Origin: Spirochaetia bacterium
Lineage (GTDB): Bacteria; Spirochaetota; Spirochaetia; CADAEX01
Reading direction: 5' to 3'
NCBI GenBank assembly: GCA_963662795.1
Contig: OY759746.1
Coordinates: 1,984,001 to 2,048,000, forward strand
DNA length: 64,000 nucleotides
Shown one piece after another: positions 4,983-63,927 of this stretch (its first letter is position 1; every line of letters starts with the position of its first letter). The notes under the pieces are model-generated. The model saw only the letters and a program-made list of their open reading frames with translations. It was not told where the DNA came from and did no database searches. The position numbers and the translations under genes are program-made.

Positions 4983-5256
4983 GTCCGGCCTTGGCTTCCA
5001 GCCGTGCGGCCTGGACAAGAAGTGGGGGCACTGGTGGATAACAGAGGATAAAGCGCTTCGCTCGGAGTACCTCGCTTGGCCTACGGCACACATCGCAGGT
5101 TTTGAAGTATAACTTCTATAAACAACTAGTTTTAAAAAATAAATACTGCAATTTTAAAAATATTATACATTGACTACGATGCGTCGCTTATCCTCAGGAC
5201 GTTATAAGCAATGTTCCCGCAAGAGAAAATCGCCCGGACCTCCGGCCGACGGGCGA
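4983..5256 (+). repeat. Junction J3 (core B)
   Basis: TAAC(5042)...GTT(5201). Confidence 0.9.
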
Positions 5257-5336
5257 AGAAAACATGATCCACAATATAATTATAATATTCGCTATAGATA
5301 AAATATATAGTTTTCTTGTTGTTTAATATGTTATCT
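5256..5336 (+). other. Conserved leader with attI-like site (C4)
   Basis: ...AAAATATATAGTTTTCTTGTTGTTTAATAT-G|TTATCT; shared with C8, C14, C16, C25, C28, C34, C38. Confidence 0.65.
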
Positions 5337-5414
5337 TCCCTTCGAGGAAAATCCAAAATTACTATATAGAGAGTAAAAAAAATTAAAAACAAAATAAATA
5401 AAGGATTTAAAGTT

Positions 5415-6233
5415 ATGAATAGTATTATTCCATCTGATAATTCATTAAAAGGATATATTTCAAATATATTTGATAAAAAAGCAAATAACTATTCAGAAAA
5501 TATTACCTTAAGAGCTCTGGTTCAGCTTATACCAAATATTGGTGGAGCTTTAGATACTATTTTATATGAAAAAGGATCCAAATGGAGACAAGAGAGAATT
5601 GAATATTTTATAAAATATTTTGAAGAAAAAATAAATGAATTGATAAAAGAAAATAATTTATTAAGTGAAAAAATAAATAAAGTAATTAATAGTGAAGATT
5701 TTTATGATTTATTTTTAAAAGCTTTAAAAGATTCAACATCAACTAAATATAAAGAAAAAATTAATTATTATGCTAATATATTAATAAATTATGTAAATAA
5801 AATACAAACACCAGAAGATTCTGAAATTATGATTGAAATACTATCTCAACAATTAAACTCAGAAATATATATTTTAACAAAGATATATTCCAATAATTCT
5901 AAAATTACTTTGTATAATTATAATAATGCATTTATTTTTTGGAATGAATTAAAACAATATTTGGAGAAAAATATTATTAAACTAAAATCTAATGACGATA
6001 TTCCCAAAGAATATATTTTTAATGATAATAATCTGTATTTGTTAAATAAATTAGAATCAAATTTTCTTTTAACCCGACAAGAATATGTAAATGGAGAATT
6101 ATTATCTTATACTCATAAAAAAACAAGTCAAACAACTACTTATCAAGTTAATATGACCAAAAAAGAATATAAATTAACTGATTTTGGAAAAAAGTATTTA
6201 GAATGGATACTAATCAATCAGAAAAGAGAATAA
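5415..6233 (+). CDS. Hypothetical protein (weakly Abi-alpha/DUF4393-like)
   Basis: 'LIPNIGGALD...ERIE...KEKINYYANIL...LTDFG' pattern. Confidence 0.55.
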   Translation: MNSIIPSDNSLKGYISNIFDKKANNYSENITLRALVQLIPNIGGALDTILYEKGSKWRQERIEYFIKYFEEKINELIKENNLLSEKINKVINSEDFYDLFLKALKDSTSTKYKEKINYYANILINYVNKIQTPEDSEIMIEILSQQLNSEIYILTKIYSNNSKITLYNYNNAFIFWNELKQYLEKNIIKLKSNDDIPKEYIFNDNNLYLLNKLESNFLLTRQEYVNGELLSYTHKKTSQTTTYQVNMTKKEYKLTDFGKKYLEWILINQKRE

Positions 6234-6244
6234 AAAAATTTAAA

Positions 6245-6351
6245 ACATAATAAAAAGATGGAGCAGATTTGACTTTTGGCACGTGTTCTTGCATAGCAAG
6301 AACACGTGCCAATCCTTCAGAACAGTCAAACAGCTTAACTTGGCGCTATGT
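6245..6351 (+). repeat. Nested degenerate attC (first inner cassette of C4)
   Basis: ACATAAT...GGCACGTGTTCTTGC/GCAAGAACACGTGCC stem...GCTATGT; AAC and GTT both mutated. Confidence 0.65.
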
Positions 6352-6411
6352 CGACGACTTTAGCGCGGTAAATATATGTTATAATTGCATTACAAACTGA
6401 GGAGGAGTAAT

Positions 6412-7248
6412 ATGAATAAATTCTGGTTTTTTTCTTATTTTGTTATCATTTTTTCTTTGTCATCCTGTGGAGTTCCGAAGGTTGATTATAACAAGCTTCA
6501 ACATGAGAATGAAGAATTGAAATTAGAAATAGAGACTTTACGAAATGATCTGGATGAGTATATTAACGGAGCTGAACGTACTTTTATTTTAATCAAAAAG
6601 GCATTTGGAGAAAGTAATTTTGCAGAGGCAAAAGAAAAACTCTCTCTACTTGAGAAATATCATCCCGAAGAAATGGAGGGAATAGAAATAAAAAAAATAA
6701 TTCGTCAAATTGAAACAAAAGAGAAGGAAGAAAGACTCCGCAAGGAGGAAGAAGAAAAGGAAAGAATTCGTTTAGAAAATTTAAAAAACACAGGCATTTG
6801 GAAGGTTACTTATTATGTTGATAACTTTGGAGAACCTACGAAAGATGGATATATTCGAAACACAAATTTAATTAATGGTACATTTAGCAATACGGCGACA
6901 CAGAATTCGCCACTCAATGTTCAATTCTTAATTAACAACAGTTCTAATATAGACATTATGCTGTTTGAATATGCAGGAAATAATCCAGTAAAAGCATATT
7001 CTAAAGAAACATATACAGTACAAGTTCAGGATAAAGATGGTAATCGCAATTCTTTATCTGCAACAAATTATTCTGATAGATTATCTTTTGGTGAGAGTGC
7101 ATCACGAATTATCCATAAGGCATTAATGAAGGGTGGATCACTTAAATTTAGAATAGTTGAAGATGAAACGACAACGACACAATATCAATTTGATATTATC
7201 AATGCAGATTGGTACGAAAATGCCTATAGGCTACTGACAGGTCAATGA
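6412..7248 (+). CDS. Putative lipoprotein with coiled coil
   Basis: Signal peptide with lipobox-like LSSC; GGAGG RBS. Confidence 0.7.
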   Translation: MNKFWFFSYFVIIFSLSSCGVPKVDYNKLQHENEELKLEIETLRNDLDEYINGAERTFILIKKAFGESNFAEAKEKLSLLEKYHPEEMEGIEIKKIIRQIETKEKEERLRKEEEEKERIRLENLKNTGIWKVTYYVDNFGEPTKDGYIRNTNLINGTFSNTATQNSPLNVQFLINNSSNIDIMLFEYAGNNPVKAYSKETYTVQVQDKDGNRNSLSATNYSDRLSFGESASRIIHKALMKGGSLKFRIVEDETTTTQYQFDIINADWYENAYRLLTGQ

Positions 7249-7277
7249 AACGGAATATTTTGGTATTGAAGAAGGAG

Positions 7278-7403
7278 ATATAACAAAGAATTCAATCTGA
7301 CATTTCCTTTGTCACGGTTTGTGCGACTAGCATCGCTCATTTTCATGCACAAACCGTGACAAGTCCTCCGGACGCGGAAACGTAGGTTAACTCAATGTTA
7401 AAA
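7278..7403 (+). repeat. Nested canonical attC (second inner cassette of C4)
   Basis: ATATAAC..ATTCAATCTGAC..TTGTCACGGTTTGTGC/GCACAAACCGTGACAA..GTAGGTTAACTCAAT-GTTAAAA. Confidence 0.8.
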
Positions 7404-12755: not shown

Positions 12756-13047
12756 GTCCGGCCTTGGCGTTGCCGTGCGGCCTGGACAAGAAGCGGCTGG
12801 TACTGGAGCATAACAGCGATTATTTCGCTGCGCTCCTTGTGGTCGCTTGGGCTCCTGCCAGTTGAACTGGCAGATCGCCATATTTTGTTTTAATAAAACC
12901 AGAATGACATGTGTTTTATGTTTTTTAAGTTTGAAAAAACAAATAAATGTATTTTAGAGTTTAGCCACAAAACATCGCATAATCGCGGGACGTTATCCAC
13001 AATATCATCGCAAGAGAAAATCGCCCGGACCTCCGGCCAACGGGCGA
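12756..13047 (+). repeat. Junction J7 (core C)
   Basis: TAAC(12814)...GTT(12992). Confidence 0.9.
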
Positions 13048-13121
13048 AGAAAATAGAATCTGCTGAATAATATACGTTATACATAAGATATATAGTTTTC
13101 TTGTTATATAATATGTTCTAC
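13047..13121 (+). other. Conserved leader with attI-like site (C8)
   Basis: ATATATAGTTTTCTTGTTATATAATAT-G|TTCTAC; exact complement GTAGAAC at 14522. Confidence 0.7.
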
Positions 13122-13138
13122 AGAATAAAGGGGATAAA

Positions 13139-14518
13139 ATGAGTTGTTATCACTGGGGCTTATCCCCAGAAAGCGATTGTAGGAAACTCACAAATGAGCT
13201 TGTTTACCGTGATAAAAATGGGCATCAGTACTGTTTAGTACATGCACCTAAATATTATGTTCAACCAAAAGGTTTCTTTTTAGGTTATATTGAAGAACAT
13301 AATGCCAATTCAATTCAATTCAAAAAAGACGATTTTGACAAACTACTAGATAAAACGATCTCAATTCAAAAAGAGCACTCTATGATTCGTTTTGATAAAG
13401 TGTATTTTCCCGATAATTTTCACTATACACTTCCTTTAGACTTAGCAAAAGGAAAGGACATCTGGTTAATAGAGTGTAGTTTTAATCTTACGATATGTAA
13501 TTCCCAAGTAAAAAGAATATCAATAACAAGATGTAAAATCGATGGTCTTACAATGCATAATCTGGAAATTGATGAGACTTTAATCCATTTCTCAAAAATT
13601 AGCAAATATTTAACTTTCAGAAATAATTCATACAATACATTTTCAATACAAGATTGTGAAGTAAATTGCAGGGTTGACTTTCGAGATAATAGTGTAAAAG
13701 ATAATTCACAGTTTAAGTGCTCAGTATACTTCAATCAATCAATATTTAATCGAACTGTTAAAATTGAGAATCTGCATTACGATAATGATTTATCAGAAGT
13801 CCGAATTTTAGATAACGAATTTAATAATAATTTATATTATCTTAATAATAAAATAGGAGACGAAATAAATTTTATTGATAATAAGTTCAATAATAGTTTT
13901 GCATATCTAGAAAATATCGACTTATCAAAGACAAAATTTGACTTACGAAATCTCGAATATTTAAGATTCAATAATTGCCGATTCCCCAAAAAATTAAAAT
14001 CAATTGAAGATGAATCTTTACAAAATGCTTACGAGATATACCAAGCACTAAAAAGAAACTCATTTGAACAAAATGATAATCAAGCTGCTTCGAAATGGCA
14101 TTATTTAGAAAAACATACCCTAAAAAAGATATATAGTAAGTCAAAGAAAATATTTAATCTAATAATTTTAACCATATATAATTTGCTTAGTGGTTATGGA
14201 GAAAAACCAGGTAAAGCTCTATTTGTTTTAGTGGTAGAAATTATTATGATTTTAGCTATTTACATTTATATAGGAAATAGAATTAGCGAAAATCTTAACT
14301 CGGATATAATTATTAGATGTATTTTTAGTCTCTCTGATGGTATTCCATTTATTAATTTTCCTATCGAATATACGCTTAAGCAACTTCTTGTGCGAAATAC
14401 AGATCTAATAGAAATCTCACATGTATATAATGTTGTAGCTGGAATAGGGAAAATATTGATTTCATTACAATTAGCGTTATTTTCTTTTGCGATAAGAAAT
14501 AAAATGAAGAGAAATTAA
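13139..14518 (+). CDS. Beta-solenoid/pentapeptide-like protein with C-terminal membrane region
   Basis: N/F-rich repeats, then 'LSGYGEKP' followed by TM helices. Confidence 0.6.
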   Translation: MSCYHWGLSPESDCRKLTNELVYRDKNGHQYCLVHAPKYYVQPKGFFLGYIEEHNANSIQFKKDDFDKLLDKTISIQKEHSMIRFDKVYFPDNFHYTLPLDLAKGKDIWLIECSFNLTICNSQVKRISITRCKIDGLTMHNLEIDETLIHFSKISKYLTFRNNSYNTFSIQDCEVNCRVDFRDNSVKDNSQFKCSVYFNQSIFNRTVKIENLHYDNDLSEVRILDNEFNNNLYYLNNKIGDEINFIDNKFNNSFAYLENIDLSKTKFDLRNLEYLRFNNCRFPKKLKSIEDESLQNAYEIYQALKRNSFEQNDNQAASKWHYLEKHTLKKIYSKSKKIFNLIILTIYNLLSGYGEKPGKALFVLVVEIIMILAIYIYIGNRISENLNSDIIIRCIFSLSDGIPFINFPIEYTLKQLLVRNTDLIEISHVYNVVAGIGKILISLQLALFSFAIRNKMKRN

Positions 14519-14521
14519 TCT

Positions 14522-14628
14522 GTAGAACGAGCAAATGTAGCAGTAAACTTTTTTGGCACACAAATATGCAGTCGCAAATTGTCCGCCAACTCTTCGGGAC
14601 AAAGTTCCAGCTGATTTGGACGTTATAA
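14522..14628 (+). repeat. Nested canonical attC (C8)
   Basis: GTAGAAC..CAAATGTAGC...GCTGATTTG..GTTATAA. Confidence 0.75.
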
Positions 14629-14653
14629 AAAACAAAAAATAGAAACGGGGGAA

Positions 14654-14926
14654 GTCCGGCCTTGGCGTTGCCGTGCGGCCTTGGACAAGAAGCGATGATA
14701 CTGGTGGATAACAGAGGATAATTCGCTGCGCTCGGAGTACCTCGCTTGGCCTACGGCATATTTTGCTATCATCAAACTTGAACAATAAAAGTTAAACCCT
14801 TTTTAAATTTAATAAAGTAGACATAAATGTTTTAAAGTTTGAACCGCAAAACATCGCTTATCCTCGGGACGTTATAAGCAATGTTCCCGCAAGAGAAAAT
14901 CGCCCGGACCTCCGGCCGACGGGCGA
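14654..14926 (+). repeat. Junction J8 (core B)
   Basis: TAAC(14712)...GTT(14871). Confidence 0.9.
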
Positions 14927-20818: not shown

Positions 20819-21068
20819 AATCAATCTGCCGTCCATGGCAGATTGATTAAGGCGGGGGACACTGCAGCTAACAGCGAATGACCGGTTCCGGCTGTTTCTA
20901 AGGAAGCAGCCTCCACCCAAATTGCCGAAATAATACATGTTAAGAATAATGGAATAGAGTATAAACTTTTGGAGTGAAAAACATCATCGGCAACTTCGGT
21001 CATTCGCGGGACGTTATCCACAATGCCCCCACAAGAGAAAATCGCCCGGACCTCCGGCCGACGGGCGA
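20819..21068 (+). repeat. Junction J13 (core D)
   Basis: Variant 3' hairpin AATCAATCTGCC..GGCAGATTGATT; TAAC(20872)...GTT(21013). Confidence 0.88.
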
Positions 21069-21142
21069 AGAAAATACAACATGCAGTATAATTTATTCAA
21101 TAACCCAAATAAATAGTTTTCAAGAATATTGATATGTTTTAC
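21068..21142 (+). other. Degenerate attI-like leader (C14)
   Basis: GAAGAAAA..CAGTATAAT..AATAGTTTTC..GATAT-G|TTTTAC; no inner attC visible. Confidence 0.45.
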
Positions 21143-23343: not shown

Positions 23344-23398
23344 GGATATACAGTATAAATAATATATGTTAGCTTGATGTTTCGTGCAGGAGAAAAAA

Positions 23399-24228: not shown

Positions 24229-24498
24229 GTCCGGCCTTGGCTCCGCCGTACGGCTAGGACAAGAAGTGGGGACACTGGTGGATAACAGAGGATAATGCGC
24301 TTCGCTCCCTTTGGTCGCTTGGGCTTTGCCACACATCGTAGGTTTTAAACTATAACTTTTAGAAACAATAAATATTTGAAGAAATAAATTACAACTTTGA
24401 GCTTTTGTTTTTTATCTACGATGCGTCGCTTATCCTCGGGACGTTATCCACAATGCCCCCACAAGATGCAATCGCCCGGACCTCCGGCCGACGGGCGA
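24229..24498 (+). repeat. Junction J15 (core B)
   Basis: TAAC(24286)...GTT(24443). Confidence 0.9.
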
Positions 24499-24572
24499 AG
24501 AAAATATAATTTACAATATAATATAAACTATACACAGAATATATGGATTTCTTGTTATTCAATATGGTATAT
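24498..24572 (+). other. Degenerate attI-like leader (C16)
   Basis: ATATATGGATTTCTTGTTATTCAATAT-G|GTATAT; partner ATATAAC at 26011. Confidence 0.6.
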
Positions 24573-24591: not shown

Positions 24592-25446
24592 TTGAATATT
24601 CCTAATTCGCAAATTGAAAGTTGGCAAAATCAGGGAGCGCAAAGCGCATCAATCAATTCACATACTTCGATAAGAACCGCAATAGAAAATATTACTCAAG
24701 AATTTAATTTTGAAATATTCCTTCAAGGTTCTTATAAAAATCATACAAATATACGTGGTGACAGCGATGTAGATGTTGTAATCAATATAAAGGAAATGTT
24801 TTATCATAATTTAAATGAATATGAAGCAAAACAGGTCGGAATTATACCTGCGGCTTTTACTTGGCATGACTATGAAAAAAGAATTAAATATTGTCTAAAT
24901 GAGTACTATACACAAAAACCTATTCGTGTGGGAGCTAAATCAATCAAAATTGATTTTCAAAATTCGTCTTATGTTCCTGCTGATGTTGTAATTACCACAG
25001 ATTATCGATTCTATACTTCCTTAACTCATTATATAGAAGGTATTTGTCTGTTTAACCGAACAAACAACAATTTAATTGTAAACTATCCAAAACAACATTT
25101 TGATAATGGAAATTCTAAATCAACAAGAACAGATGGGAATTTTCGGAAGTATGTTCGCTTGATTAAAAATGCACGAAATTGGATTTTAGAAAATTATATT
25201 CCTCCTAGTTTTAATGCTCCCTCATATTTTATCGAATCTCTACTTTATAATTGTAATGACTTATTACTTAAACAAACTCCTGAAGAATTTCTAAGATATG
25301 CCATTAATATGTGGGAATACAACAATGAGACAGATCAAAAATGCCAAAATGAGATTTCCCCTCTCTATGGAATTGATGATACTTCTTGGAATCATCATAA
25401 TAAAGTTCAATTTGCTGCAGCCTTACGTAATCTATTTGGAGTTTAA
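24592..25446 (+). CDS. CBASS cGAS/DncV-like nucleotidyltransferase (CD-NTase, CdnE-like)
   Basis: 'FLQGSYKNHTNIRGDSDVDVV', 'PADVV', 'NYPKQH..NG', 'PSYFIESLLYN'. Confidence 0.88.
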   Translation: MNIPNSQIESWQNQGAQSASINSHTSIRTAIENITQEFNFEIFLQGSYKNHTNIRGDSDVDVVINIKEMFYHNLNEYEAKQVGIIPAAFTWHDYEKRIKYCLNEYYTQKPIRVGAKSIKIDFQNSSYVPADVVITTDYRFYTSLTHYIEGICLFNRTNNNLIVNYPKQHFDNGNSKSTRTDGNFRKYVRLIKNARNWILENYIPPSFNAPSYFIESLLYNCNDLLLKQTPEEFLRYAINMWEYNNETDQKCQNEISPLYGIDDTSWNHHNKVQFAAALRNLFGV

Positions 25447-25449
25447 TTA

Positions 25450-26016
25450 ATGCATAAATATTACACCGACTCAACATCCGAACTATATGTCCAATTTTTC
25501 TTAGGAGCTATTTCATTACTATTTGGTTTCTTTATATCAATGTTACCTATTCATAATCCATTCTCTTGGGTTATTTCTGCTCCAAGTGCTTTATCGATAT
25601 TTAGCATCCTGAATTATTTGTTTTCAAAAATTGGTTGGAAAATGCTATCAAAAATGATATCGGCAATTCCAGATTTAAATGGAACATACTCAGCAAAAAT
25701 ATTTTCAGATTCAGAATCTGAAAAGTTTGATTCTGAAGTTACTTTAACTATTCGACAAACATGGAAGAAGATATCAATTATTCTTACAAGCAGATATTCT
25801 AGATCTGAAAGTATTTCTGCGGCTTTTTATTCAGGTGGTGAAAAGCTTATTTATAACTATAAAAATGAGCCTTTATATGATTCAGTTGATACAATGAATA
25901 TACACCGTGGTACTGCAGAATTCCTTATTGAAGATAAACAACTAAAGAGTGGAAATTATTATAATGATAGACATCGAAAGACATCAGGCGTCATAAGAGA
26001 AATAAAGAAAATATAA
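25450..26016 (+). CDS. cap15: CBASS 2TM beta-barrel effector (Cap15-like)
   Basis: 2 TM then 'PDLNGTY', 'IRQTW..ISI', 'YNYKNEP', 'HRGTA', 'YYNDRH'; directly after CD-NTase. Confidence 0.85.
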   Translation: MHKYYTDSTSELYVQFFLGAISLLFGFFISMLPIHNPFSWVISAPSALSIFSILNYLFSKIGWKMLSKMISAIPDLNGTYSAKIFSDSESEKFDSEVTLTIRQTWKKISIILTSRYSRSESISAAFYSGGEKLIYNYKNEPLYDSVDTMNIHRGTAEFLIEDKQLKSGNYYNDRHRKTSGVIREIKKI

Positions 26017-26128
26017 CAATTGAATCGAGAACAATTTTACTTTATCATTGTTTTGCTTCTGTCTAAAAAATATGTGCCAAATGCTTGTTTTGTGCAAGTT
26101 TGAAAAATATCTCAACACATTGTAAATT
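26011..26128 (+). repeat. Nested degenerate attC (C16)
   Basis: ATATAAC overlapping the cap15 stop; decayed arms and R' site. Confidence 0.5.
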
Positions 26129-38943: not shown

Positions 38944-39017
38944 AGAAAATAGTATCTACTGTATAATATACTTTATACACAAGATATATAGTTTTCTAGT
39001 TATTTAATATGTTATGT
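38943..39017 (+). other. Conserved leader with TATAAT and attI-like site (C25)
   Basis: CTGTATAAT..ATATATAGTTTTCTAGTTATTTAATAT-G|TTATGT; exact complement ACATAAC at 42305. Confidence 0.75.
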
Positions 39018-39045: not shown

Positions 39046-40605
39046 ATGGTTAAAATCAATAAACTAATAATAGAAAATTTCAAAAAATTCCGTTATAGGC
39101 TTGATGTTGATTTTAACGATGAAATAAACATTTTTATCGGTGATAATGAATCTGGAAAAAGTACTATTTTAAAGGCTCTTGAATATGTTACAAGTGGAAA
39201 TAGATATAAAATAGAATCGGATGGTTTTGATAAGATAATAAATTTAGACTCTGTAAATGAATTTATGAAGTCCGAAAAAAAGTATAATGACTTACCAGTA
39301 GTATTTGTAGAAGTCTACCTAGATTCAAAAGATAATCCAGCCCTAAACGGCAAAAATAATCTTCTTAAAAAAGAATGTGATGGATTAAGACTAAAAATAT
39401 GTCCAGATGATGATTTGTCTAGTGCAATTAAATCTATTCTTGAAGAAAGTGATGGCATATTTCCATATGATTTTTATACTATCAAATTCAATACATTCCA
39501 AGGTGAAGGTTACACAGGTTACAAGAAGTATATTCAATCACTTTTAGTTGATAACAGTTTGATCGGTGATGAGACTGCAATAAAGCAGTATATAAAAGAT
39601 GTTTATTCTGGTTTTGTGTCTGAATCAGAGGATAATAGGAATGAAAGTAACTATAGAAAATTAAAGAAAAAATTCACAGATGACACATTAAGTGCTGTTA
39701 ATTCTAAAATTGAAGACTATTCTTTTGGTTTAAAACATGATCGAAAATCTAATTTGAAAACTGATTTATCAATATATGAAGATGAGATCAGCATAGATAA
39801 TAAAGGAAAAGGTCGCCAATGCTTCATAAAGACAGAATTTGCATTAATGAAAGATACTGGACATATAGATATTGTCCTTCTTGAAGAGCCAGAGAATCAT
39901 CTTAGTCACAATAATATGAATCTACTTATTGAAAAAATACTAATATCAAAATCAAGGCAATTATTTATTGCTACACATAGCAATGAAATCTGTTCTCGGC
40001 TGAACCTTCTGAATAGCCATCTAATAAATAGTAGTTCTGAAAAAACATTGAAGCTTAATAAAATAAATCCTGAAACTGCTGATTTTTTTATGAAAGCTCC
40101 AAATAATGATCTTCTAAGATATGTCACTTCAAATAAGGTAATTTTAGTTGAAGGAAACGCAGAATACATCCTTATGGATGAATTAGTGAAAATTGTTTCA
40201 GGAAAAACATCCAAAGAGAATGGATTCTCAATAATTTCTGTTGGAGGACTTAGTTTTAAAAGATATATGGAAATTGGAAATTATTTAAAAATAAAAACAG
40301 CAGTAATTAGAGATAATGATAGTGATTATAAAAAGCATTGTATAAATAATTATACCGATTCTGTTTCCAAAGAAACAAAAATTTTCTATACAACTGATAA
40401 TGATTTATATACTTTTGAAGTTTGTTTGTATAATGATAATAAAAAATTATGCAATGAGCTATTTAGTGCAGGCCGTAAATCATTATCAGTTAAAGAGTAT
40501 ATGTTACAAAACAAAGCTGAGTCAGCTTATCAATTACTCAAAAATGGTTCTATAATAAATGTCCCAGACTATATTTGCGCAGGAATAAAATGGATAATAG
40601 ACTGA
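39046..40605 (+). CDS. gajA: Gabija GajA-like OLD nuclease (ABC ATPase + TOPRIM)
   Basis: GDNESGKST, LLEEPENHL, ATHS, VEGNAE, RDND; followed by UvrD helicase. Confidence 0.82.
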   Translation: MVKINKLIIENFKKFRYRLDVDFNDEINIFIGDNESGKSTILKALEYVTSGNRYKIESDGFDKIINLDSVNEFMKSEKKYNDLPVVFVEVYLDSKDNPALNGKNNLLKKECDGLRLKICPDDDLSSAIKSILEESDGIFPYDFYTIKFNTFQGEGYTGYKKYIQSLLVDNSLIGDETAIKQYIKDVYSGFVSESEDNRNESNYRKLKKKFTDDTLSAVNSKIEDYSFGLKHDRKSNLKTDLSIYEDEISIDNKGKGRQCFIKTEFALMKDTGHIDIVLLEEPENHLSHNNMNLLIEKILISKSRQLFIATHSNEICSRLNLLNSHLINSSSEKTLKLNKINPETADFFMKAPNNDLLRYVTSNKVILVEGNAEYILMDELVKIVSGKTSKENGFSIISVGGLSFKRYMEIGNYLKIKTAVIRDNDSDYKKHCINNYTDSVSKETKIFYTTDNDLYTFEVCLYNDNKKLCNELFSAGRKSLSVKEYMLQNKAESAYQLLKNGSIINVPDYICAGIKWIID

Positions 40606-41615
40606 TTCTTGCTGTCGCTGGAGCTGGAAAAACAACTTACATAATTAGAAAATTAACCCTTGAAAAAAGAGCCTTAATTATCACTTATACAAATAATAAT
40701 TTCGAAAATTTAAGAACATCGGTAATCGATAAATTTGGCTATATTCCACCCAATATTACAATTATGACTTATTTTTCTTTTATTCATTCATTTTGTTATT
40801 TACCTTATTTAAAAGATGAATGTAAAACAAATGGAATTTTCTTTAAGCCAAACATAAATCAATATGCGAAAGGACGATCTCGATACATTACAAATGGAGA
40901 CCGACTTTATTCTAATCGAATTTCTAAATTTATAATGGAAAAGGGAATTTTAAAAAATGTGATAGAAAGAATAGAAAGATATTTTGATTTACTATTTATT
41001 GATGAAATACAAGATTTTGCTGGAAATGATTTTAACTTTTTACTCAGTCTAAATACTTTGAAAATTCCTCAATTATATGTTGGTGACTTTTATCAGCATA
41101 CTTTTGATACGAGCAGAGATGGTATCGTAAATGGAACTCTTCATGATGATTTACAAAAATATAAAGAGTGGTATACAAAAATAGGATTTGATATTGACGA
41201 AGAAACATTATCAAGAAGCTATCGTTGCGGTCCTGTGATATGTGACTATATTTCAAGAAATTTAGGAATTAGCATAAAATCTCATAAACAAGATAAATCT
41301 TACATTAAGTTTACAAAAGATGAAGCAGATGTCAAAGAATTATTCTTAAACAATACTATTATAAAATTATTTTATCAGAAACATTATGCTTATAAAAAAT
41401 ATACAAGAAATTGGGGTGACTCAAAAGGAGAAAACCAGTATTTAGATATTTGTGTTGCATTGAATGATGGTACATATAAAAAATATTGCAGTTCTGAATT
41501 ACATAATTTACCAGAACAAACAAAAAATAAGTTATATGTTGCACTAACACGTGCAAATAGAAACGTATATATGGTTCCTGAGAAGGTTGTTAAAAAAATT
41601 GTGCAATCCAATTAG
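40590..41615 (+). CDS. gajB: Gabija GajB-like UvrD helicase
   Basis: AVAGAGKT, DEIQD, VGD..Q, SYRC, YVALTRA. Confidence 0.82.
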   Translation: MDNRLILAVAGAGKTTYIIRKLTLEKRALIITYTNNNFENLRTSVIDKFGYIPPNITIMTYFSFIHSFCYLPYLKDECKTNGIFFKPNINQYAKGRSRYITNGDRLYSNRISKFIMEKGILKNVIERIERYFDLLFIDEIQDFAGNDFNFLLSLNTLKIPQLYVGDFYQHTFDTSRDGIVNGTLHDDLQKYKEWYTKIGFDIDEETLSRSYRCGPVICDYISRNLGISIKSHKQDKSYIKFTKDEADVKELFLNNTIIKLFYQKHYAYKKYTRNWGDSKGENQYLDICVALNDGTYKKYCSSELHNLPEQTKNKLYVALTRANRNVYMVPEKVVKKIVQSN

Positions 41616-41635
41616 TCTTTATCTTTTTTTGTAAG

Positions 41636-42310
41636 ATGGGGTATGTTCAATTGAGTGAATGGTTAAATAAAGCAAAAGAAAATCTCTTCAATTCCAGTGT
41701 AGAAAAAAATAACCTTCAAAAAGCAATAACTGAATGGAGCGTAACAGAAAATGTAATAGATTATCTTGAAGAGGTAGAATCATTTGAGGATTTTTATGCC
41801 AGTTGTGAACTATGTGAGCATCCAAATCTTAGATGGCATTTTGAAATACTGAATGAGTATACAAATAAATCTTTATGGGTAGGTTCAAAATGTATTTTGA
41901 AGTTTGGAATAAGGCTTCTTGATGAATATGGATCAGAGTACAATCATGAAGAGAAAGAAAAAAAGTTAAACTCCATAATTACTAGAAAAAGAAAGTCAAT
42001 TAAAGATGAAAAGTTACTGTCTATTTTAAGGAAATTATGGAATAGAGATACAGAATTCAGAAGCTATATTGAAAAATCGGTTAAATTTTTTAAAAAAAAT
42101 AACTCATTTACACCCAAACAAATTCTTACGATAGATTGGAGATTAAGTAAACATCACATTAAATTTGCTAAAGAAATATTCAAAGTTAGAATAAGAAATC
42201 AAAAAGAACGAGATGAAATATATAATTTAGAAGATTGGCAGAAGGAGAAATTGATTAAGTACTTAACTCATGATCAGATAGAAAAATATATGAAAGGAAT
42301 GCGGACATAA
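41636..42310 (+). CDS. Hypothetical protein with putative zinc site, third gene of the Gabija cassette
   Basis: 'CELCEH..F.I.N..VGSKCI'. Confidence 0.65.
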   Translation: MGYVQLSEWLNKAKENLFNSSVEKNNLQKAITEWSVTENVIDYLEEVESFEDFYASCELCEHPNLRWHFEILNEYTNKSLWVGSKCILKFGIRLLDEYGSEYNHEEKEKKLNSIITRKRKSIKDEKLLSILRKLWNRDTEFRSYIEKSVKFFKKNNSFTPKQILTIDWRLSKHHIKFAKEIFKVRIRNQKERDEIYNLEDWQKEKLIKYLTHDQIEKYMKGMRT

Positions 42311-42442
42311 CAAGAGATTTGGAGTAGTCAAAATTTATTGTCACGATTCTGGCTAAAGACGTTCGGCTGATAGCCTCACTCCAGAATCGTGACAATTCCG
42401 CGAAGACACGGAACAATTTTGCTACTCAAATCGTCGTTATAC
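42305..42442 (+). repeat. Nested canonical attC (C25)
   Basis: ACATAAC..GATTTGGAGTAG..TTGTCACGATTCTGG/CCAGAATCGTGACAA..CTACTCAAATC..GTTATAC. Confidence 0.82.
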
Positions 42443-44637: not shown

Positions 44638-44902
44638 AAGCCTATAGACGTCCTGTCTATAGGCTTAATACGGGGCACTTCAAATAACAGAGGATAATGC
44701 GCTACACTCGGAGTACCTCGCTTGGCCTGCGGCACACATCGTAGATATTAAGAATACAGCTTCTATAAACAACAAGTTTTTGAAAAAATATATTACAACT
44801 TTTAGGTATTCACACTTATCCTACGATGCGTCGCTTATCCTCGGGACGTTATATGCAATACGACCCCAAGAGAAATCGCCCGGACCTCCGGCCCACGGGC
44901 GA
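44638..44902 (+). repeat. Junction J27 (core B)
   Basis: Variant 3' hairpin AAGCCTATAGAC..GTCTATAGGCTT; TAAC(44688)...GTT(44848). Confidence 0.88.
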
Positions 44903-44976
44903 AGAAAAGGTGATTTGCTGTATAATATCCTCTATATTTAAAATATATAGTTTTCTGGTTATTTAATATGTTAACT
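44902..44976 (+). other. Conserved leader with attI-like site (C28)
   Basis: ATATATAGTTTTCTGGTTATTTAATAT-G|TTAACT; exact complement AGTTAAC at 47063. Confidence 0.75.
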
Positions 44977-45039: not shown

Positions 45040-47055
45040 ATGACTGAACTCCCGAAAGTTGGATATACACATACAAAAGAAAGAAAAAGCATTAAACAAC
45101 TTGCAAATATATTACCAGATGAATTATTTATCCTTAGATCAGAAGATGGTGGAGATTATGGTGTTGATCGCATTATTGAAGTAATTGAAAATTGGGAAGC
45201 AACAAATATTCGATGTCATATTCAAATAAAAAGTACAACAAAAAACTCTAAAAATGAAAAGCTGAATTATTCTGTTCCAATAAAGACAATTAATTATTTA
45301 TTGAATAGCTTGAATTCTATTTTTATTGTTTATTCTGAAAGCGAAAACAAATATTATTGGGAATGGGTCGGTCGTATATCTACAAAAAAGAATCAATCAA
45401 ATAGTAAAGGCAAAAAAACATTTTCCTATTATTTTTCTTCAATATTAGATATCGAGTCATTCAAGAAAATTCACACACGATTAATTAGTGATTCAGAATT
45501 TGTAAAGAAAATTAATTTATCTGCAAGTCCATATAAAAAGGTAATTTTAACTGAAAAAATACATGAAAGTTCATATAGAGAATATCTTATTATGTACGCT
45601 GAAGGAAAATATGAAAAAATCATTGCAATTTCTAAGGAAATAGAAAAGATCACACCCACATTAAATTCTCTAATTTCTCTCTGTTATTATAGTATTTATA
45701 ATTATGATGAAGCTTTAAATCATATATTAAAAGCCGAACAAGAAGAGAAAAATAGTGAATTTCAGAAAATAAAGGCTGCAATTTTATGTGAAAAAGGATT
45801 AGCAGAAAATAATACAGAGATTCTTGAGCAAGCAAAAAAAATATTTTTGGAAATTAAAAGTAATGATTGGGGGTGGATGGATTTATACAATTATGGAAAT
45901 ATTTTATCTGGTTTGGCAGAATTTGAACAAGCTGAAGATTGTTATAAAAATGCGATACAACTTGAAGAAAATGAGGCAATTGTTTGGAAAAATCTTAGTA
46001 GCATATACTATCATAAAAATGATTATGAAAAAGAAATGGATTGTTTAAATAAAGCTCTGGAAATTGATGAAAACTTAATTGAGGCATTAATTTGTAAGGG
46101 GATTTCTCTTGGAAATAACTATTCTGAATATTTAGAAGCTATTACTTGTTTAAGGAAAGCATTAGAGCTCTCAAGGAAGAATCTGTATAAAAATAACTCA
46201 GTTTATTATTGGTTAAGTTATTTCCTAAATCAAAGTAAGCAATATAAAGAATCTCTGATAATGATTGAAGAAGGTTTAAAATATCATCCAGGAGATAGAA
46301 ACTTAGATGGTTTAAGGGTAAAAACCTTAATAATAGCCTCAGAATCCTTAAAAGAATATGAAAATATTGTTATAACTGAACTTGATAGAATTATTGATAA
46401 ATACCCAGATAATATTTGGGCACTAAAAGAGAAAATAAAAATATTAGGTCGTCAAAAATCCTTACACGAAATATTCCCATTAATTAAAAAATGTTTTTTA
46501 CTCTATAATTATGATATTGACATTGAAATAATTATGGATTTAACACTAAATCAAATCATGTATATTCTGGACAATATAAATATCGTTTCTGAATATAGAA
46601 AAAATAACAATATCGGCAGTTATTTTTTTGAAAGCTATAATATTGGAATTTCAATTATGCAGAAAATAGAAATGAAAATGAATCTAAAATTTATTGCTTT
46701 CTTTTACCTATTGAATGATTTAGATGAAAATGCAGTCTTTCCTGTTATGGAAGATCATGCAAAGGCTATATTAGACTTAATCGAAAATATAACAGAGTTC
46801 TTAGTTTATGATCTTATTGATGGATCAATTGATGAAAAATCGGAAAGAATAACACATATAATAACCACACTTCCTGAAATTCTCCTAATTGAACTATCAA
46901 GACAGAATGGATGGAATCTTGTAAAGCATAATTTTAAGATCGAAATAGCAGATTATTTTATTGAAAATTCTTTAATAATACATAATTGGTTGAACAATTG
47001 TTTGGAACCTATTTTAAAAGGAGCAAATAACATTTTTAAATGGGATAAAAAATAG
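45040..47055 (+). CDS. DUF4365-like nuclease domain + TPR protein
   Basis: 'DYGVDRIIE..IQIKST' N-terminus; multiple TPRs. Confidence 0.78.
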   Translation: MTELPKVGYTHTKERKSIKQLANILPDELFILRSEDGGDYGVDRIIEVIENWEATNIRCHIQIKSTTKNSKNEKLNYSVPIKTINYLLNSLNSIFIVYSESENKYYWEWVGRISTKKNQSNSKGKKTFSYYFSSILDIESFKKIHTRLISDSEFVKKINLSASPYKKVILTEKIHESSYREYLIMYAEGKYEKIIAISKEIEKITPTLNSLISLCYYSIYNYDEALNHILKAEQEEKNSEFQKIKAAILCEKGLAENNTEILEQAKKIFLEIKSNDWGWMDLYNYGNILSGLAEFEQAEDCYKNAIQLEENEAIVWKNLSSIYYHKNDYEKEMDCLNKALEIDENLIEALICKGISLGNNYSEYLEAITCLRKALELSRKNLYKNNSVYYWLSYFLNQSKQYKESLIMIEEGLKYHPGDRNLDGLRVKTLIIASESLKEYENIVITELDRIIDKYPDNIWALKEKIKILGRQKSLHEIFPLIKKCFLLYNYDIDIEIIMDLTLNQIMYILDNINIVSEYRKNNNIGSYFFESYNIGISIMQKIEMKMNLKFIAFFYLLNDLDENAVFPVMEDHAKAILDLIENITEFLVYDLIDGSIDEKSERITHIITTLPEILLIELSRQNGWNLVKHNFKIEIADYFIENSLIIHNWLNNCLEPILKGANNIFKWDKK

Positions 47056-47062: not shown

Positions 47063-47168
47063 AGTTAACAAACGCATGCAACTGATAAAATCTTTGTCAC
47101 ACATTTTGCTTACGCAAAATATGCGCCAACCCTTCGGGACGATTTTGCAACTGATGCGGCCGTTAAAT
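47063..47168 (+). repeat. Nested canonical attC (C28)
   Basis: AGTTAAC..CGCATGCA...TGATGCG..GTTAAAT. Confidence 0.8.
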
Positions 47169-52470: not shown

Positions 52471-52733
52471 AAGCCTATAGACGTCCTGTCTATAGGCTTA
52501 ATACGGGGCACTTCAAATAACAGAGGATAAAGCGCTACGCTCCCTTTGGTCGCTTGGGCTTCGCCACACATCGTAGGGTTTTTACTACAACATCTAAAAA
52601 CAACAAGTTTTGGAAGAAAATATTGCAACTTTGAAAATATCATTCTTATCCTACGATGCGTCGCTTATCCTCGGGACGTTATATGCAATACGACCCCAAG
52701 AGAAAATCGCCCGGACCTCCGGCCCACGGGCGA
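52471..52733 (+). repeat. Junction J33 (core B)
   Basis: TAAC(52521)...GTT(52678). Confidence 0.88.
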
Positions 52734-52805
52734 GAAAAAATAATTCGCTGTATATACACTCTATATATGAAATATATGGTTTTCTAGTTATTTAATATGT
52801 TAAAT
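52733..52805 (+). other. Conserved leader with attI-like site (C34)
   Basis: ATATATGGTTTTCTAGTTATTTAATAT-G|TTAAAT; exact complement ATTTAAC at 54526. Confidence 0.75.
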
Positions 52806-52821: not shown

Positions 52822-54531
52822 ATGAAGAAAAATTCATTATTTTTAGGTGAAACAAATGATACAGACATTAATCTCATAATTTCAGAAAATGATTATAGAC
52901 CTGCTATCTTAAGCTTAAATAATAAACATTTTCCCAAAATAATTCCACAAGACGATCAAATAATGAAATTATTAAAAGAATCACAGAATAAATATAAGGA
53001 TTCAATACGATTCGTATATAATAATCGTAGATATTCAGCTTTAAATAATCAATTTGATTTTTCTGTAATATACGCAGAAACAATTATTGAAGCAGATATA
53101 AATAATATTGAAGATATACAAATTCAAAGTGTTCGATATTATTTATCTAATTTTAATCGTTATATTTTAGATGGCAATATTAGCAATAAATTTGAGAATA
53201 GTGAATTTACTCGTAAAATATCAATGCCTGAATTTAGTACAAAAATTAATTATAAGAACTTAGAAGTATCTATTTTCAACAAATACTTATTTGATACAGA
53301 AAAGAATGATAGAAAATTTAAGATTGATGAGTATCCAGTAATAGAATATAGAACCAATGATAAATTCGAATTTTATGACATTGTATCATTTTCACATGAT
53401 TTGAGCATGATTTTTACTTATTTGACAGGATATGAATGCTATCCTATGCATATTTGGGTTAGTGATGATAATTCGTATTATAGATCTTTATATAAACCTG
53501 TACCTACAATAAGAGACATTAACATTGTTACTTCTCATGAATTTATTTTCAAATTTAAAGATCTTTGTGAAAAAAATGATTTCTCAAAAATATTTACAAA
53601 TTACTATTCAAATGAGCGATTTATAAAGTTTAAAAAACTTTATTCAAGATTTTATTATTTATACTCTTCTCAAAACGAATGGGAATATGAATTGCTTGGC
53701 TATTTAAGTGTTTTTGAGAAGTCTATTAGTAATATACAAAAGTATAAATATATTGATATAGAAATTAAAAAAAATATAATTGATACGGTAAAAAATAGTT
53801 TATTGACCGAATTTAAAAAAAATAGAAATATTGATTATGAACCCATAGAAAAAAGCGTTTTGAATTATAAAGAAAAATTAACTTACCAAAAGAAGCATTT
53901 TTTAACTTTTAGAGAGAAATATTTAGTTTGGATTGAAAACTTAGATCAAACATTGAATTCTATATTCAGTTTTGATGAAAGAGAGTTTAAAATAATAAAA
54001 AAATTAAGAGATGATATTGCTCATTCAAATTCGATTGATTATTCAGATTATGATATATCTAAAATATTTGAAATAATTGAAAAAATGAAACTAATATTAT
54101 TATATCTAATATACACCGATTTGGGATTCGATCTTAAGAGAATAATTTCGAATTTACATTCAACAATGAATCCTATATTAAGAAAATCCAATATAGATAA
54201 AGTAGCATTAAAACGGGCTAGTGGACGAATTCCATTTATTAAAATAAACAACCATGATTTTAAGTATTTCGCAGAACATAATTTAATGTATCTTGTTGTG
54301 GAAAAGAAAACAGAAAATACAGATATCAATTATTTAATTAATAAATCGTTTACAGAAAACGTTAATAATTCATGGATAAATGATGACGGTAAACAATTTC
54401 ATAATATACGTGACTTTTTGAAGGATTTATATAAACCTAATAATATAGAAATCAACTTTTCTTCTGGTTATGTAGAAACAAAGGATGGTTTGTTAAAAGA
54501 TGTTCATGGATTATGTATTATTGATATTTAA
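52822..54531 (+). CDS. ApeA-like HEPN domain protein
   Basis: Beta-rich N-terminus, 'FTYLTG', HEPN RxxxxH 'LRDDIAH'. Confidence 0.68.
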   Translation: MKKNSLFLGETNDTDINLIISENDYRPAILSLNNKHFPKIIPQDDQIMKLLKESQNKYKDSIRFVYNNRRYSALNNQFDFSVIYAETIIEADINNIEDIQIQSVRYYLSNFNRYILDGNISNKFENSEFTRKISMPEFSTKINYKNLEVSIFNKYLFDTEKNDRKFKIDEYPVIEYRTNDKFEFYDIVSFSHDLSMIFTYLTGYECYPMHIWVSDDNSYYRSLYKPVPTIRDINIVTSHEFIFKFKDLCEKNDFSKIFTNYYSNERFIKFKKLYSRFYYLYSSQNEWEYELLGYLSVFEKSISNIQKYKYIDIEIKKNIIDTVKNSLLTEFKKNRNIDYEPIEKSVLNYKEKLTYQKKHFLTFREKYLVWIENLDQTLNSIFSFDEREFKIIKKLRDDIAHSNSIDYSDYDISKIFEIIEKMKLILLYLIYTDLGFDLKRIISNLHSTMNPILRKSNIDKVALKRASGRIPFIKINNHDFKYFAEHNLMYLVVEKKTENTDINYLINKSFTENVNNSWINDDGKQFHNIRDFLKDLYKPNNIEINFSSGYVETKDGLLKDVHGLCIIDI

Positions 54532-54658
54532 CAAAGCCATGAACAGTGATCGAGTCTTTGGCACAACATCTGCTCACCGCTTCACTCTGAGGTAAATGTA
54601 GCGCCAATTCTTTCGCTTTGCTACAGAAGCGAGTCGGCTCGTTATGGTGACGCTAATT
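54526..54658 (+). repeat. Nested attC, R' mutated (C34)
   Basis: ATTTAAC overlapping stop..CCATGAAC...GTTATGG..GCTAATT. Confidence 0.7.
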
Positions 54659-61641: not shown

Positions 61642-61709
61642 TACTTACTATGAAATATTGTATAAATAGGGCATGTACAGGTAGAGTTATTGCTTGACAC
61701 TTGAAAGAA

Positions 61710-61979
61710 GTCCGGCCTTGGCTCCGCCGTACGGCCTGGACAAGAAGTGGGGGCACTGGTGGATAACAGCGGTTAAAGCGCTGCGCTCGCAAGCTCGCTT
61801 GGGCTCCTGCCAGTTGTGCTGGCAGTTCGCCAAACATCGCAGCTTGAAATAAAAGTAAAAGAACTAAACAGCTTGTGGAATAATGTAATCATAAATTGCG
61901 ATGCTTCGCTTAACCGCGGGACGTTATGCTCAATACCAGCCGCAAGAGGAAATCGCCCGGACCTCCGGCCGACGGGCGA
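61710..61979 (+). repeat. Junction J37 (core A)
   Basis: TAAC(61767)...GTT(61923); core matches J1. Confidence 0.9.
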
Positions 61980-62054
61980 AGAAAACAGGATCTGCTGTAT
62001 AATATACTTTATACATAAAAATATACAGTTTTCTAGTTATTAAATATGTTTGAT
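61979..62054 (+). other. Conserved leader with attI-like site (C38)
   Basis: CTGTATAAT..ATATACAGTTTTCTAGTTATTAAATAT-G|TTTGAT; partner ATCTAAT at 63812. Confidence 0.7.
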
Positions 62055-62081
62055 TGACCCTATGGGCCAAAAGGAGAAAAT

Positions 62082-63002
62082 ATGATAAATATCAAAGAGT
62101 TAAACCAACTAAGAAAAGATTTTACGACTATTTATGAAGCGTATAAATCTGATAACTCATTAAAACCAAGACTGAAAGAAATTGTCTTCAACTTAGAAGA
62201 AATGCAAAAACAATTTGACATTGAATCTGGCTTTGCAGAGGCTCAGCAAATTGTTCACGATCTTTTAGTTGCAATACCAACAGAAAATTTAGGTAAACTT
62301 GAAAATCGAAAAGCATTAAATATTGCTGAAAATGTTCAAGCCTTGGCTGATATTATACAACCTAATAATGAAGAAAGTATGGAAATTAGCTTGGCTGGTA
62401 TAAGTCCTGGAAGTGCAATCCTGATGTATGATTTTATACAAAAAGAGAAAAAAGGATTGGCTCCATTCGTCAATGTAGAAGAAACAAAAGAGCGAATTAC
62501 TAAGATTATAAAAACAGCCCCTATGTTAATGGAGAAAAATTTCAATAAAACTAAATTTGAAGAATTTAAAAAAGAAACTGGTATAAAAGATGAAAGTGCT
62601 TATGAAATAGCAAAGACTATATTAAAAATTGTACCAGCAACAAGTGATATAAATGATAATATTATATTTTCAATAAATAACGAAAAAGAAAAAATTGATT
62701 TAAATATTGAGAAGGCAGATAGGCTGAATATAGCAAAAGCAAAAACAAATATATATAATATAGTAAAACCTGAGGAGCGTAAAGAATTAGAAGGTAAATT
62801 GGGAATAATGGAAGAATGGGATGTGAATCATAAAATTGTAATTATTGATGTTGATAGGAATAATTATACTGTAAATTATGAGCCAACACAACAAAACCTA
62901 AAAAAAATTAAAGACAATATTGGCAAAGAAGTAAAAATAAGACGTGAAAAGGATCCTGATGATAATAGGCGTTGGATTTTAACTGAATGGGTAAAAAAAT
63001 AG
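62082..63002 (+). CDS. Hypothetical protein
   Basis: AGGAG RBS, 306 aa; possible OB-like C-terminus. Confidence 0.65.
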   Translation: MINIKELNQLRKDFTTIYEAYKSDNSLKPRLKEIVFNLEEMQKQFDIESGFAEAQQIVHDLLVAIPTENLGKLENRKALNIAENVQALADIIQPNNEESMEISLAGISPGSAILMYDFIQKEKKGLAPFVNVEETKERITKIIKTAPMLMEKNFNKTKFEEFKKETGIKDESAYEIAKTILKIVPATSDINDNIIFSINNEKEKIDLNIEKADRLNIAKAKTNIYNIVKPEERKELEGKLGIMEEWDVNHKIVIIDVDRNNYTVNYEPTQQNLKKIKDNIGKEVKIRREKDPDDNRRWILTEWVKK

Positions 63003-63011
63003 GAGGTAATT

Positions 63012-63812
63012 ATGAGAAGTCATAGAATTGTCCTATTATTATCAGTTTTCTTAATTAGCATCTTTGGAGTTTATTTTTATTTAAATACAAATAGACACCA
63101 ACCAATAAATCTGGTATTAACTCTTGAAACAAATATAAATGATAAATTAGTTATAAGTGAAAAATCATTATCCGAATTGAATCATATAATTAATGAAAAT
63201 CTTATTGTAAAAGATCAGAACAAATTAATTGAAATATTTCAGGAAGAAAAATCAAATTATATAAATTTAATTACTATAATTTCAATTCTGCTAACTGTTT
63301 TTAGTTTATATACAGTCTTAAGTGCTTTTGTTGAAAAAAATGAAATAAACAGATTAAGTCAAGATATGAAGGCTAAAATTGATGAGTATGAAGGTGAATT
63401 ACAAAATGTGTATTTTAATACACTTATATCACATATTCAAAAAGTGAAGGAATCATATATAAATGGTTCAACAAAATGTCTTGAAGACGGATTAAAAGTA
63501 TCTGATTCGCCATCATTTTTGAAGGCTATAAATCTTGATCTTGGTAGTTTGTTTGAGTTTATTCGCAGGAAAGAATTGACACAAAGAATCAATGATAAAA
63601 GCTTTTTTATTGAATATGCAAATCTAACATTTGCACTAATTAAATATGGATTTGATAAAAAATATCTTCCAAATAGTGATTACAATATGAATGAAAATGA
63701 AGTTTTTAGGTTTAGCATTTCAATGTTGCATAATAATATCGATAAAAAGATTTTCAAGGATTTTAAAGAAACTATTAGTCAATTTAAAACTATTGAATGG
63801 GGTCGTTATTAA
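63012..63812 (+). CDS. Hypothetical membrane protein (2 TM)
   Basis: AGGAGG RBS, two hydrophobic helices. Confidence 0.65.
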   Translation: MRSHRIVLLLSVFLISIFGVYFYLNTNRHQPINLVLTLETNINDKLVISEKSLSELNHIINENLIVKDQNKLIEIFQEEKSNYINLITIISILLTVFSLYTVLSAFVEKNEINRLSQDMKAKIDEYEGELQNVYFNTLISHIQKVKESYINGSTKCLEDGLKVSDSPSFLKAINLDLGSLFEFIRRKELTQRINDKSFFIEYANLTFALIKYGFDKKYLPNSDYNMNENEVFRFSISMLHNNIDKKIFKDFKETISQFKTIEWGRY

Positions 63813-63927
63813 TCTAATTACTGTTTCAATCTGATAATTCCTATTGTCACACTTTTTGCTGTCGTCATTATAGGCTAAAAGTCAACAATCTCTTCTGGCC
63901 AAATTACAAACTAGGCATATGTTCTAA
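63812..63927 (+). repeat. Nested degenerate attC (C38)
   Basis: ATCTAAT..TTCAATCTGA..TTGTCAC (as in the 7278 site)...GTTCTAA. Confidence 0.5.

Follow-up and report, generated by a model that had tools for sequence, protein, structure and literature searches.

How do cassettes of the classical integron type come to lie, repeatedly and behind the same short sequence, inside the units of a second cassette array? This question is raised by a 64,000-nt stretch of a Spirochaetia bacterium genome (assembly GCA_963662795.1, contig OY759746.1, positions G000:C1:1984001-2048000; hereafter "the window"). The genome comprises 3.93 Mb in one contig with 39.7% G+C; the window has a G+C content of 26–37% and is interrupted at 1–4 kb intervals by G+C-rich repeats of ~290 bp, the composite sites of what we term the outer array. 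About one-sixth of the outer units, termed carrier (or adapter) cassettes, open with a common leader that ends at a GTT, behind which lie cargo genes and, in most copies, a shorter inner site of the attC type. We consider it likely, with real room for doubt, that these carriers dock classical attC cassettes at the leader GTT and are then handled, loaded, by the outer system.

Carriers share a leader that ends at a single GTT

The leader (~70 nt) stands behind the second hairpin of an outer site and closes with a highly conserved block of 27 nt followed by GTT. Searching the window for this 27-nt core at ≤3 mismatches recovered six copies, compared with none in 100 shuffles; at ≤4 mismatches there are seven (ending at 5329, 13114, 24565, 39010, 44969, 52798 and 62047) and, genome-wide, 26, all on the + strand and all within the array. 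The original prediction, made from the sequence of the window, had assigned the leader to eight units (C4, C8, C14, C16, C25, C28, C34 and C38), which stands as these seven copies plus a diverged copy in C14 that has no inner site. Over the 26 copies, mean pairwise identity climbs toward the junction (0.47, 0.70 and, at positions -27 to -1, 0.91), holds at 0.90 in the GTT and falls to 0.50 in the next 4 nt, then to 0.33 and 0.31, the abrupt end of similarity that had been described at this triplet. The triplet itself reads GTT in 22 copies, ATT in three and GGT in one. Each copy of the block contains one to three other GTT triplets, none of which is used: all junctions fall at the terminal one. 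Conservation of the block next to the crossover exceeds that of the -10 region. Three direct GTT-containing heptamers, 9–12 nt apart, also lie in the block, a spacing only suggestive of integrase binding.

The carriers of the window comprise the following features (window coordinates; R'' and R' are boxes of the inner attC; ORF, open reading frame):

38..143, + strand: inner attC of a carrier that starts outside the window (79.1 bits; leader ~1.5 kb before the window start; exact pair GTTATAT/ATATAAC)
5256..5329, + strand: C4 leader (crossover G at 5330)
5331..7403, + strand: C4 mini-array of two inner cassettes (ORFs 5415-6233 and 6385-7248)
6245-6351 and 7278-7403, + strand: C4 inner attC sites (boundary cores decayed, GTTATCT versus ACATAAT)
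12993..14871, + strand: C8, the whole carrier as an outer cassette, from the TT of the outer R' (GTT 12992-12994) to the G of the next outer R'; arms complementary
13047..13114, + strand: C8 leader (GTTCTAC next at 13115)
13139..14518, + strand: C8 cargo ORF (459 aa, no Pfam match)
14522..14628, + strand: C8 inner attC (R'' GTAGAAC, R' GTTATAA, 83.5 bits)
14629-14653, + strand: C8 tail, with an outer hairpin coming next
21068..21138, + strand: C14 diverged leader copy, ending GTTTTAC (GTT at 21136); no inner attC at the 3' end of this unit
24498..24565, + strand: C16 leader (four core mismatches; GGTATAT next)
24592..26016, + strand: C16 cargo, a nucleotidyltransferase/SMODS-like ORF and a Cap15 receptor-domain ORF (CBASS-like pair)
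26012..26127, + strand: C16 decayed inner attC (R'' ATATAAC, R' GTAAATT), recognized by eye and missed by the covariance model R1 described below
38943..39010, + strand: C25 leader (GTTATGT next at 39011)
39046..42310, + strand: C25 cargo of three ORFs, an OLD-like TOPRIM ATPase and a UvrD-like helicase (Gabija-like pair, 39046-41615) and one ORF without a match
42305..42442, + strand: C25 inner attC (R'' ACATAAC, 91 bits)
44902..44969, + strand: C28 leader (GTTAACT next at 44970)
45040..47055, + strand: C28 cargo ORF (DUF4365 and TPR repeats)
47063..47168, + strand: C28 inner attC (R'' AGTTAAC, 105.3 bits)
52733..52798, + strand: C34 leader (GTTAAAT next at 52799)
52822..54531, + strand: C34 cargo ORF (ApeA N-terminal domain and ApeA-like HEPN)
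54526..54647, + strand: C34 inner attC (R'' ATTTAAC, R' GTTATGG, 56.1 bits; ~15 extra nt before the tail)
61979..62047, + strand: C38 leader (GTTTGAT next)
63812..63927, + strand: C38 decayed inner attC (R'' ATCTAAT, 22.3 bits, E 0.0046)

Two related identifications were considered and set aside. The leader as a decayed attC was rejected, since by eye AAC is absent from the leader copies shown, leaving no R''. Other outer cassettes have, behind the second hairpin, a more compact head in which TATAAT is followed by ATATGTTAG within ~10 nt; as a second type of carrier these heads gave a mixed picture and were not adopted. The copies at G000:C1 1851332 and 1900489 are duplicates, each with an inner attC in the exact pair GTTAGAA/TTCTAAC, and no inner attC accompanies those at window positions 2150-2200 and 23336-23370 (units 2134 and 23320).

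Inner sites have the fold and family of attC

To characterize the inner sites, we built a covariance model, R1, from an alignment of 11 inner sites of this genome. With filters off, R1 scores eight + strand inner sites in the window at E≤0.0046 and none of its 34 outer sites at E≤1, in line with the earlier view that the inner sites are canonical attC sites separate from the outer ones. Over 353.5 kb covering the array, the model returns 31 distinct + strand sites (37 hits, comprising these 31, five minus-strand echoes and one duplicate from overlapping loci); genome-wide, all 27 matches at E≤0.01 lie within the array (150 of 1329 candidates scored). Their cores retain AAC in 26 and GTT in 25 of the 31 sites, the decayed versions including AAT, GCT, TTT and GTA.

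The expectation that these sites would fold as attC was also borne out. Among the bottom-strand DNA folds of 12 exact-pair inner sites, nine have z ≤ -3, forming an R stem of 5–8 bp, an unpaired spacer of 1–2 nt and an L stem that often opens to a three-way junction. Furthermore, compensatory changes occur in 24 of the 34 consensus pairs of the 11-site alignment. No Rfam family matched the window at the gathering score. By fold, covariation, inverse cores and family membership, the inner sites are attC.

Largely unrelated cassettes share a probable insertion footprint

An R1 site lies downstream of 22 of the 26 leaders within their own outer unit. Of these 22 leader/first-inner-site pairs, 17 match in full, the four variable bases after the GTT being the reverse complement of those in R''. 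Permutation of the pairs yielded a mean of 2.08, and 0 of 20,000 permutations reached 17, which supports the proposal that the complementarity is the footprint of an insertion. The four exact pairs first proposed (13115/14522, 39011/42305, 44970/47063 and 52799/54526) were all recovered, their reverse complements opening R1 matches, as were the decayed pairs of C4 (GTTATCT/ACATAAT), C16 (GGTATAT/ATATAAC) and C38 (GTTTGAT/ATCTAAT).

Chains of two cassettes with exact boundaries are present in three carriers, at 1954132, 2072182 and 2145043. In the first, the boundaries read GTTAGAA/TTCTAAC and then GTTAGAC/GTCTAAC; in the other two they chain exactly once an insertion sequence (IS) that sits at the first inner site's R' is disregarded. 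The element (~1.8 kb, with 11-nt terminal inverted repeats) has two copies that are 99.9% identical (G000:C1 about 2074703-2076470 and 2146925-2148690). The two lie in different carriers, and each occupies precisely the R' GTT of an inner attC, with GTT on both flanks. As a separate observation, this IS looks attC-targeting.

The cargoes adjoining this GTT, about 22 in number, are mostly unrelated: one common IS aside, only three of 26 share a segment of ≥200 nt at >95% identity. Because the cargoes are mostly unrelated, one ancestral insertion cannot explain the set. Nor would an ancestral insertion followed by attC × attC additions suffice, since the first cassette could not be replaced in that way. 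The exact footprints, the chains, the unrelated cargoes and the use of a single GTT together argue that different cassettes were joined to the same base many times.

The outer array belongs to an integron-like, non-classical system

The second hairpin of the outer sites contains a 16-nt motif with 151 copies in the genome (34 in the window), all on the + strand and between 1,850,163 and 2,180,019, a count that is a lower bound, so that there are at least 151 composite sites. As all copies fall between these limits, the array spans ~330 kb, or 8% of the genome. Where both arms belong to one class, an outer site folds in the order hairpin, 20-bp arm stem with GTT/AAC cores, spacer, L-like stem with an A+T-rich loop, and hairpin; its core thus has an R stem, a spacer and an L stem, yet with 20-nt arms and two flanking hairpins. 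The 5' arm of an outer unit is complementary to its own 3' arm in 104 of 150 units, compared with 10.5% of random pairs, as counted at a chosen threshold and with parsing accounting for some of the misses. In the window, the outer arms are complementary in all seven carriers, which identifies these carriers as outer-system units; a carrier is bounded by the mutually complementary arms that precede its leader and follow its tail. Several 20-nt arm classes are identical among this genome, G002 and the sister-genus genome G011, and these arm "barcodes" are therefore conserved across genera. As a side observation, the first outer cassette (G000:C1 about 1847951-1848870) begins directly at the outer attI and, from a reading of its ORFs, holds a small two-gene module resembling a toxin-antitoxin pair.

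The gene heading the array encodes a tyrosine recombinase of 339 aa; it reads toward the array and ends ~150 bp ahead of the first cassette. Its best family is the XerA-type NF040815 (214.5 bits, cut-off 220), and against the integron-integrase model TIGR02249 it scores 200.1 bits over two stretches, below the cut-off of 265. In alignment, the stretch of ~45 residues that the integron integrase (IntI) of the sister-genus genome G005 has in addition is represented by gaps in this protein and in its two orthologues (79% and 45% identical). This insert of IntI reads the extrahelical bases of attC. Judged on these sequences, the outer system falls outside the strict definition of an integron. Given the site folds, the complementary unit arms and the gaps at the IntI stretch, the outer units are cassettes of an integron-like system and not of a classical integron.

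Two more tyrosine recombinase genes lie within the array, at G000:C1:2050779-2051573 (- strand; ~2.8 kb beyond the window end) and 1881758-1882309 (- strand), with 37–43% identity to the array-heading enzyme, and similar genes of ~270–290 aa lie near outer sites of G005 and the related genome G008.

This genome also has a match to classical intI at G000:C1 about 412089-413302, between IS genes and an rRNA operon, split over two frames (175.8 and 195.7 bits).

Relatives pair the inner site family with intact IntI

Intact IntI (384–400 bits) is encoded in three sister-genus genomes (G005, G008 and G011), by genes divergent from the adjoining arrays. R1 finds 49 matches at E≤0.1 over the nine loci searched, up to 104.7 bits, and most lie on the array strand beside intact IntI. 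The first cassette boundary at attI of these arrays shows the same footprint as the carriers. Over 130 nt, one inner site of the window (C25, 42305) shares 94.6% identity with an attC from the array next to IntI in G008. Comparison of the cargo with 120 kb around the relatives' intI genes revealed no genes in common, the attC parts alone matching.

Each of the three genomes also has outer-type sites and one leader-bearing carrier. That of G008 is loaded, with the exact pair GTTCTAA/TTAGAAC, and that of G011 is decayed. In G011 an orthologue of the outer recombinase (45–46% identical) heads the outer array, whose first unit carries a leader variant; no R1 match for this first cassette was found in the 17.5 kb examined. 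Among 61 genomes searched, the leader occurs in only four, all with classical intI (intact or broken), and was not found in G002, G007 and G010, which have an outer-type recombinase and no intI match, a co-occurrence drawn from a small sample of related genomes.

The leader block was also found on two metagenome contigs. The first, L084, holds a loaded carrier with the usual tail and the exact pair GTTAAAT/ATTTAAC. In the second, L083 (425-470), the block directly follows a short GAGGATATGCAAA head and the TATAAT segment is absent, which makes the leader block a separable module. As a further observation, the inner cargo of L084 is flanked by decayed copies of both outer hairpins (120-160 and 2590-2630); these remnants hint at a past conversion of an outer cassette's body to a classical cassette.

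A docking site for classical cassettes is the favoured reading

We favour a reading in which the leader GTT would serve as a double-stranded partner site for the folded attC of classical cassettes and would be reused repeatedly. The inner cassettes would come from the cassette pool found next to intact IntI in sister-genus genomes and would settle downstream of the leader in one orientation, singly or in chains of two. Each retains the G|TT footprint, the six bases that open the cassette being complementary to the R'' of that cassette; once loaded, the carrier could then be handled as a single unit by the outer system. The anatomy of the carriers, the statistics of the footprint, the family of the inner sites and the presence of carriers in other genomes are established, whereas recombination at the leader, promoter activity and mobility of the loaded carrier are all things that we infer. 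The acting enzyme was most likely classical IntI, now a pseudogene in this genome. A more ambitious form of this reading, for which we see roughly even chances, is that a dedicated adapter, conserved across genera, couples two capture systems: the Xer-like non-IntI array would carry mobile, integrase-free docking cassettes of promoter/attI type that import and express classical integron cassettes, mostly of anti-phage genes, and leave their shuffling and spread to the outer system.

In support of a leader that probably supplies transcription to promoterless cargo, exact TATAAT is present in 17 of the 26 leaders, with a one-off version in eight more, and sits 43–44 nt from the GTT in 16 of the 17.

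Several results weigh against this reading. Four of the 26 leaders have no inner site detected by the model, and five of the 22 leader/inner-site pairs are imperfect. R1 derives from this genome's own inner sites, so that its independent value lies in the matches beside IntI genes elsewhere. The intI of this genome has a frameshift and, internally, two TGA and one TAG codons, which make it a pseudogene, and no cassette array was found beside it. Promoter scanning returned 113 predictions against 105.4 expected, which is no enrichment, and no qualifying -35/-10 pair (16–18 nt spacing) in the leaders. Local and anchored similarity of the leader to the classical attI of G005, G008 and G011 or to the outer attI was no better than for shuffles, the local score being reached by 514–803 of 1000 shuffles. 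Empty carriers, with leader joined directly to tail, had been proposed as a check and were not found in this genome; leader-gap-hairpin patterns likewise returned none in genome contigs (two scans) or metagenome contigs (one scan), and diverged empty carriers would be missed because these patterns demand exact matches to short motifs.

These results also reshape the original prediction, which had cast each carrier as a mini-integron platform with a promoter and an attI-like site. The docking of attC cassettes in outer units stands as the best-supported reading; attI homology fails the shuffle test, and the promoter is reduced to its TATAAT. A comparison of the leader with the attI beside intI had likewise been suggested, and no above-chance similarity emerged in the relatives compared. 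Pairwise, the classical attI sites of G005, G008 and G011 share 19–24 of 30 positions. No leader copy lies near either recombinase gene, all 26 in the whole genome being inside outer cassettes, and a blastn-short search of the leader over the genome and the relatives' intI loci found just chance 12–16-mers outside carriers. Thus, because the leader is no more similar to attI than shuffles are, "attI" is used here as a functional analogy and not as a claim of homology.

Alternative readings turn on the same evidence

It is unlikely, in our estimation, that the leader is instead an off-target hotspot of the attG type, with a true role as the promoter/5'-untranslated-region module of one outer-cassette family, a classical IntI having inserted cassettes at a GTT that happened to be there, insertions being kept by selection for expression and no dedicated docking site existing. 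IntI can insert at GWT sites of ~18 nt outside att sites, the inserted cassettes being expressed if near promoters, as stated by Loot et al. (bioRxiv 10.1101/2022.09.11.507474). The lack of any resemblance between leader and attI fits such a hotspot, as do the short TATAAT...ATATGTTAG heads elsewhere, two with an exact-pair inner attC and at least two without. A hotspot accords poorly, however, with the use of one GTT throughout although the block holds others, with the 27 nt beside the crossover being the best-conserved part of the leader, above the -10 region, and with the block of L083, which lacks the -10 part. Two-cassette chains, detectable attC in 22 of the 26 copies and conservation of the site over two genera and metagenomes also speak for the docking site.

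A single enzyme for both site types, with the outer Xer-like recombinase also recombining short attC and leader and no classical IntI taking part, appears improbable. Such an enzyme would explain how 17 of 22 boundaries can be exact in a genome with no intact IntI, and outer sites, outer attI, inner sites and leader all cross over at GTT, mostly GTTAT, the outer-site core folding like a long attC (R stem, unpaired spacer, L stem). The outer recombinase and its two orthologues, however, are without the stretch present in the G005 IntI; the inner site family is that found beside classical IntI in the sister genus, and outer sites are unlike it; and several inner cores are decayed, as expected of disused sites.

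We give very little credence to an origin without insertion at the leader, whether through entry of the "tail, outer site, leader" block itself into the GTT of an attC in an old classical array (equivalent to docking on a circle, and in keeping with attC-targeting elements such as the IS exactly at R' in two carriers) or through homologous exchange that spread leader and tail, since the neighbour on the left side of a carrier's outer site is usually a plain outer cassette lacking attC (eight inner against 34 outer sites in the window), the mutually complementary arms before the leader and after the tail bound the carrier, and exchange would require donors already flanked by leader and tail.

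Relation to known systems

Integrons are usually seen as one platform per array, with an integrase gene, one attI and one promoter. Carriers resemble this platform (intI, attI, promoter Pc) in having a promoter-like element upstream of a GTT crossover, attC cassettes arranged serially in one orientation, and first cassette bases complementary to the cassette's own R''. They differ in that no integrase gene adjoins the carrier, the platform being the content of another system's mobile unit, and in that the leader occurs in 26 copies in one genome with no similarity to the relatives' attI beside intI.

Carriers also resemble attG sites, SALINs (lone attC sites with no integron-integrase) and CALINs (attC clusters without an integron-integrase), as described by Loot et al. 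(bioRxiv 10.1101/2022.09.11.507474): attC cassettes lie at GTT but not in an integron, no integrase is close by, and a neighbouring promoter could potentially drive their expression. Under the definitions given there, IntegronFinder would class carrier loci as SALINs or small CALINs. The attG sites of that account are scattered and diverse, whereas here one conserved 27-nt site is reused inside a cassette, with unrelated cargoes and chains. In the delta-attI cassettes of class 1/2 integrons, an attI-type sequence likewise lies within an array as a cassette boundary usable by IntI; there, however, only one system is involved, and a resistance cassette has a truncated attI in place of attC at its 3' end, whereas the carrier leader is a 5' docking point bridging two systems and is unrelated to the attI that adjoins intI in each of the three relatives compared. 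The chromosomal integrons of Treponema (BMC Evol Biol 2013, PMC3607928) share the spirochaete host, long chromosomal arrays and a recombinase gene transcribed toward the array; they have classical IntI/attC, with nested units not mentioned in the portion of the article available, whereas the outer array has a non-IntI enzyme and composite sites of ~290 bp.

None of the attG, SALIN/CALIN or delta-attI phenomena involves a reusable docking site carried within mobile units of a second cassette system, and our literature search, in which subscription journals were thinly covered, brought up no account of cassettes that themselves contain an attI-type site for other cassettes. In the carriers, the landing site and likely promoter are detached from the integrase, multiplied and packaged in the mobile units of a second, non-classical system. 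If the leader is functional, it is possible for attI-type function to be modular and mobile and for cassettes to cross between recombination systems with different enzymes, and the expression of promoterless cassettes deep in very large arrays becomes testable. For annotation, tools that seek intI beside attC would report scattered orphan attC sites here and miss the architecture.

Cargo and cassette heads

The cargo of the window carriers is all on the + strand and, by Pfam, largely anti-phage defence, with several ORFs lacking Pfam matches. Given this content, carriers may be a route to stockpiling defence genes. Many inner cassettes also start with a small G+C-rich hairpin just after the 7-mer (for example, at window positions 5330-5350 and 62048-62075), and such a hairpin is likewise present in the first cassette of the classical G005 array.

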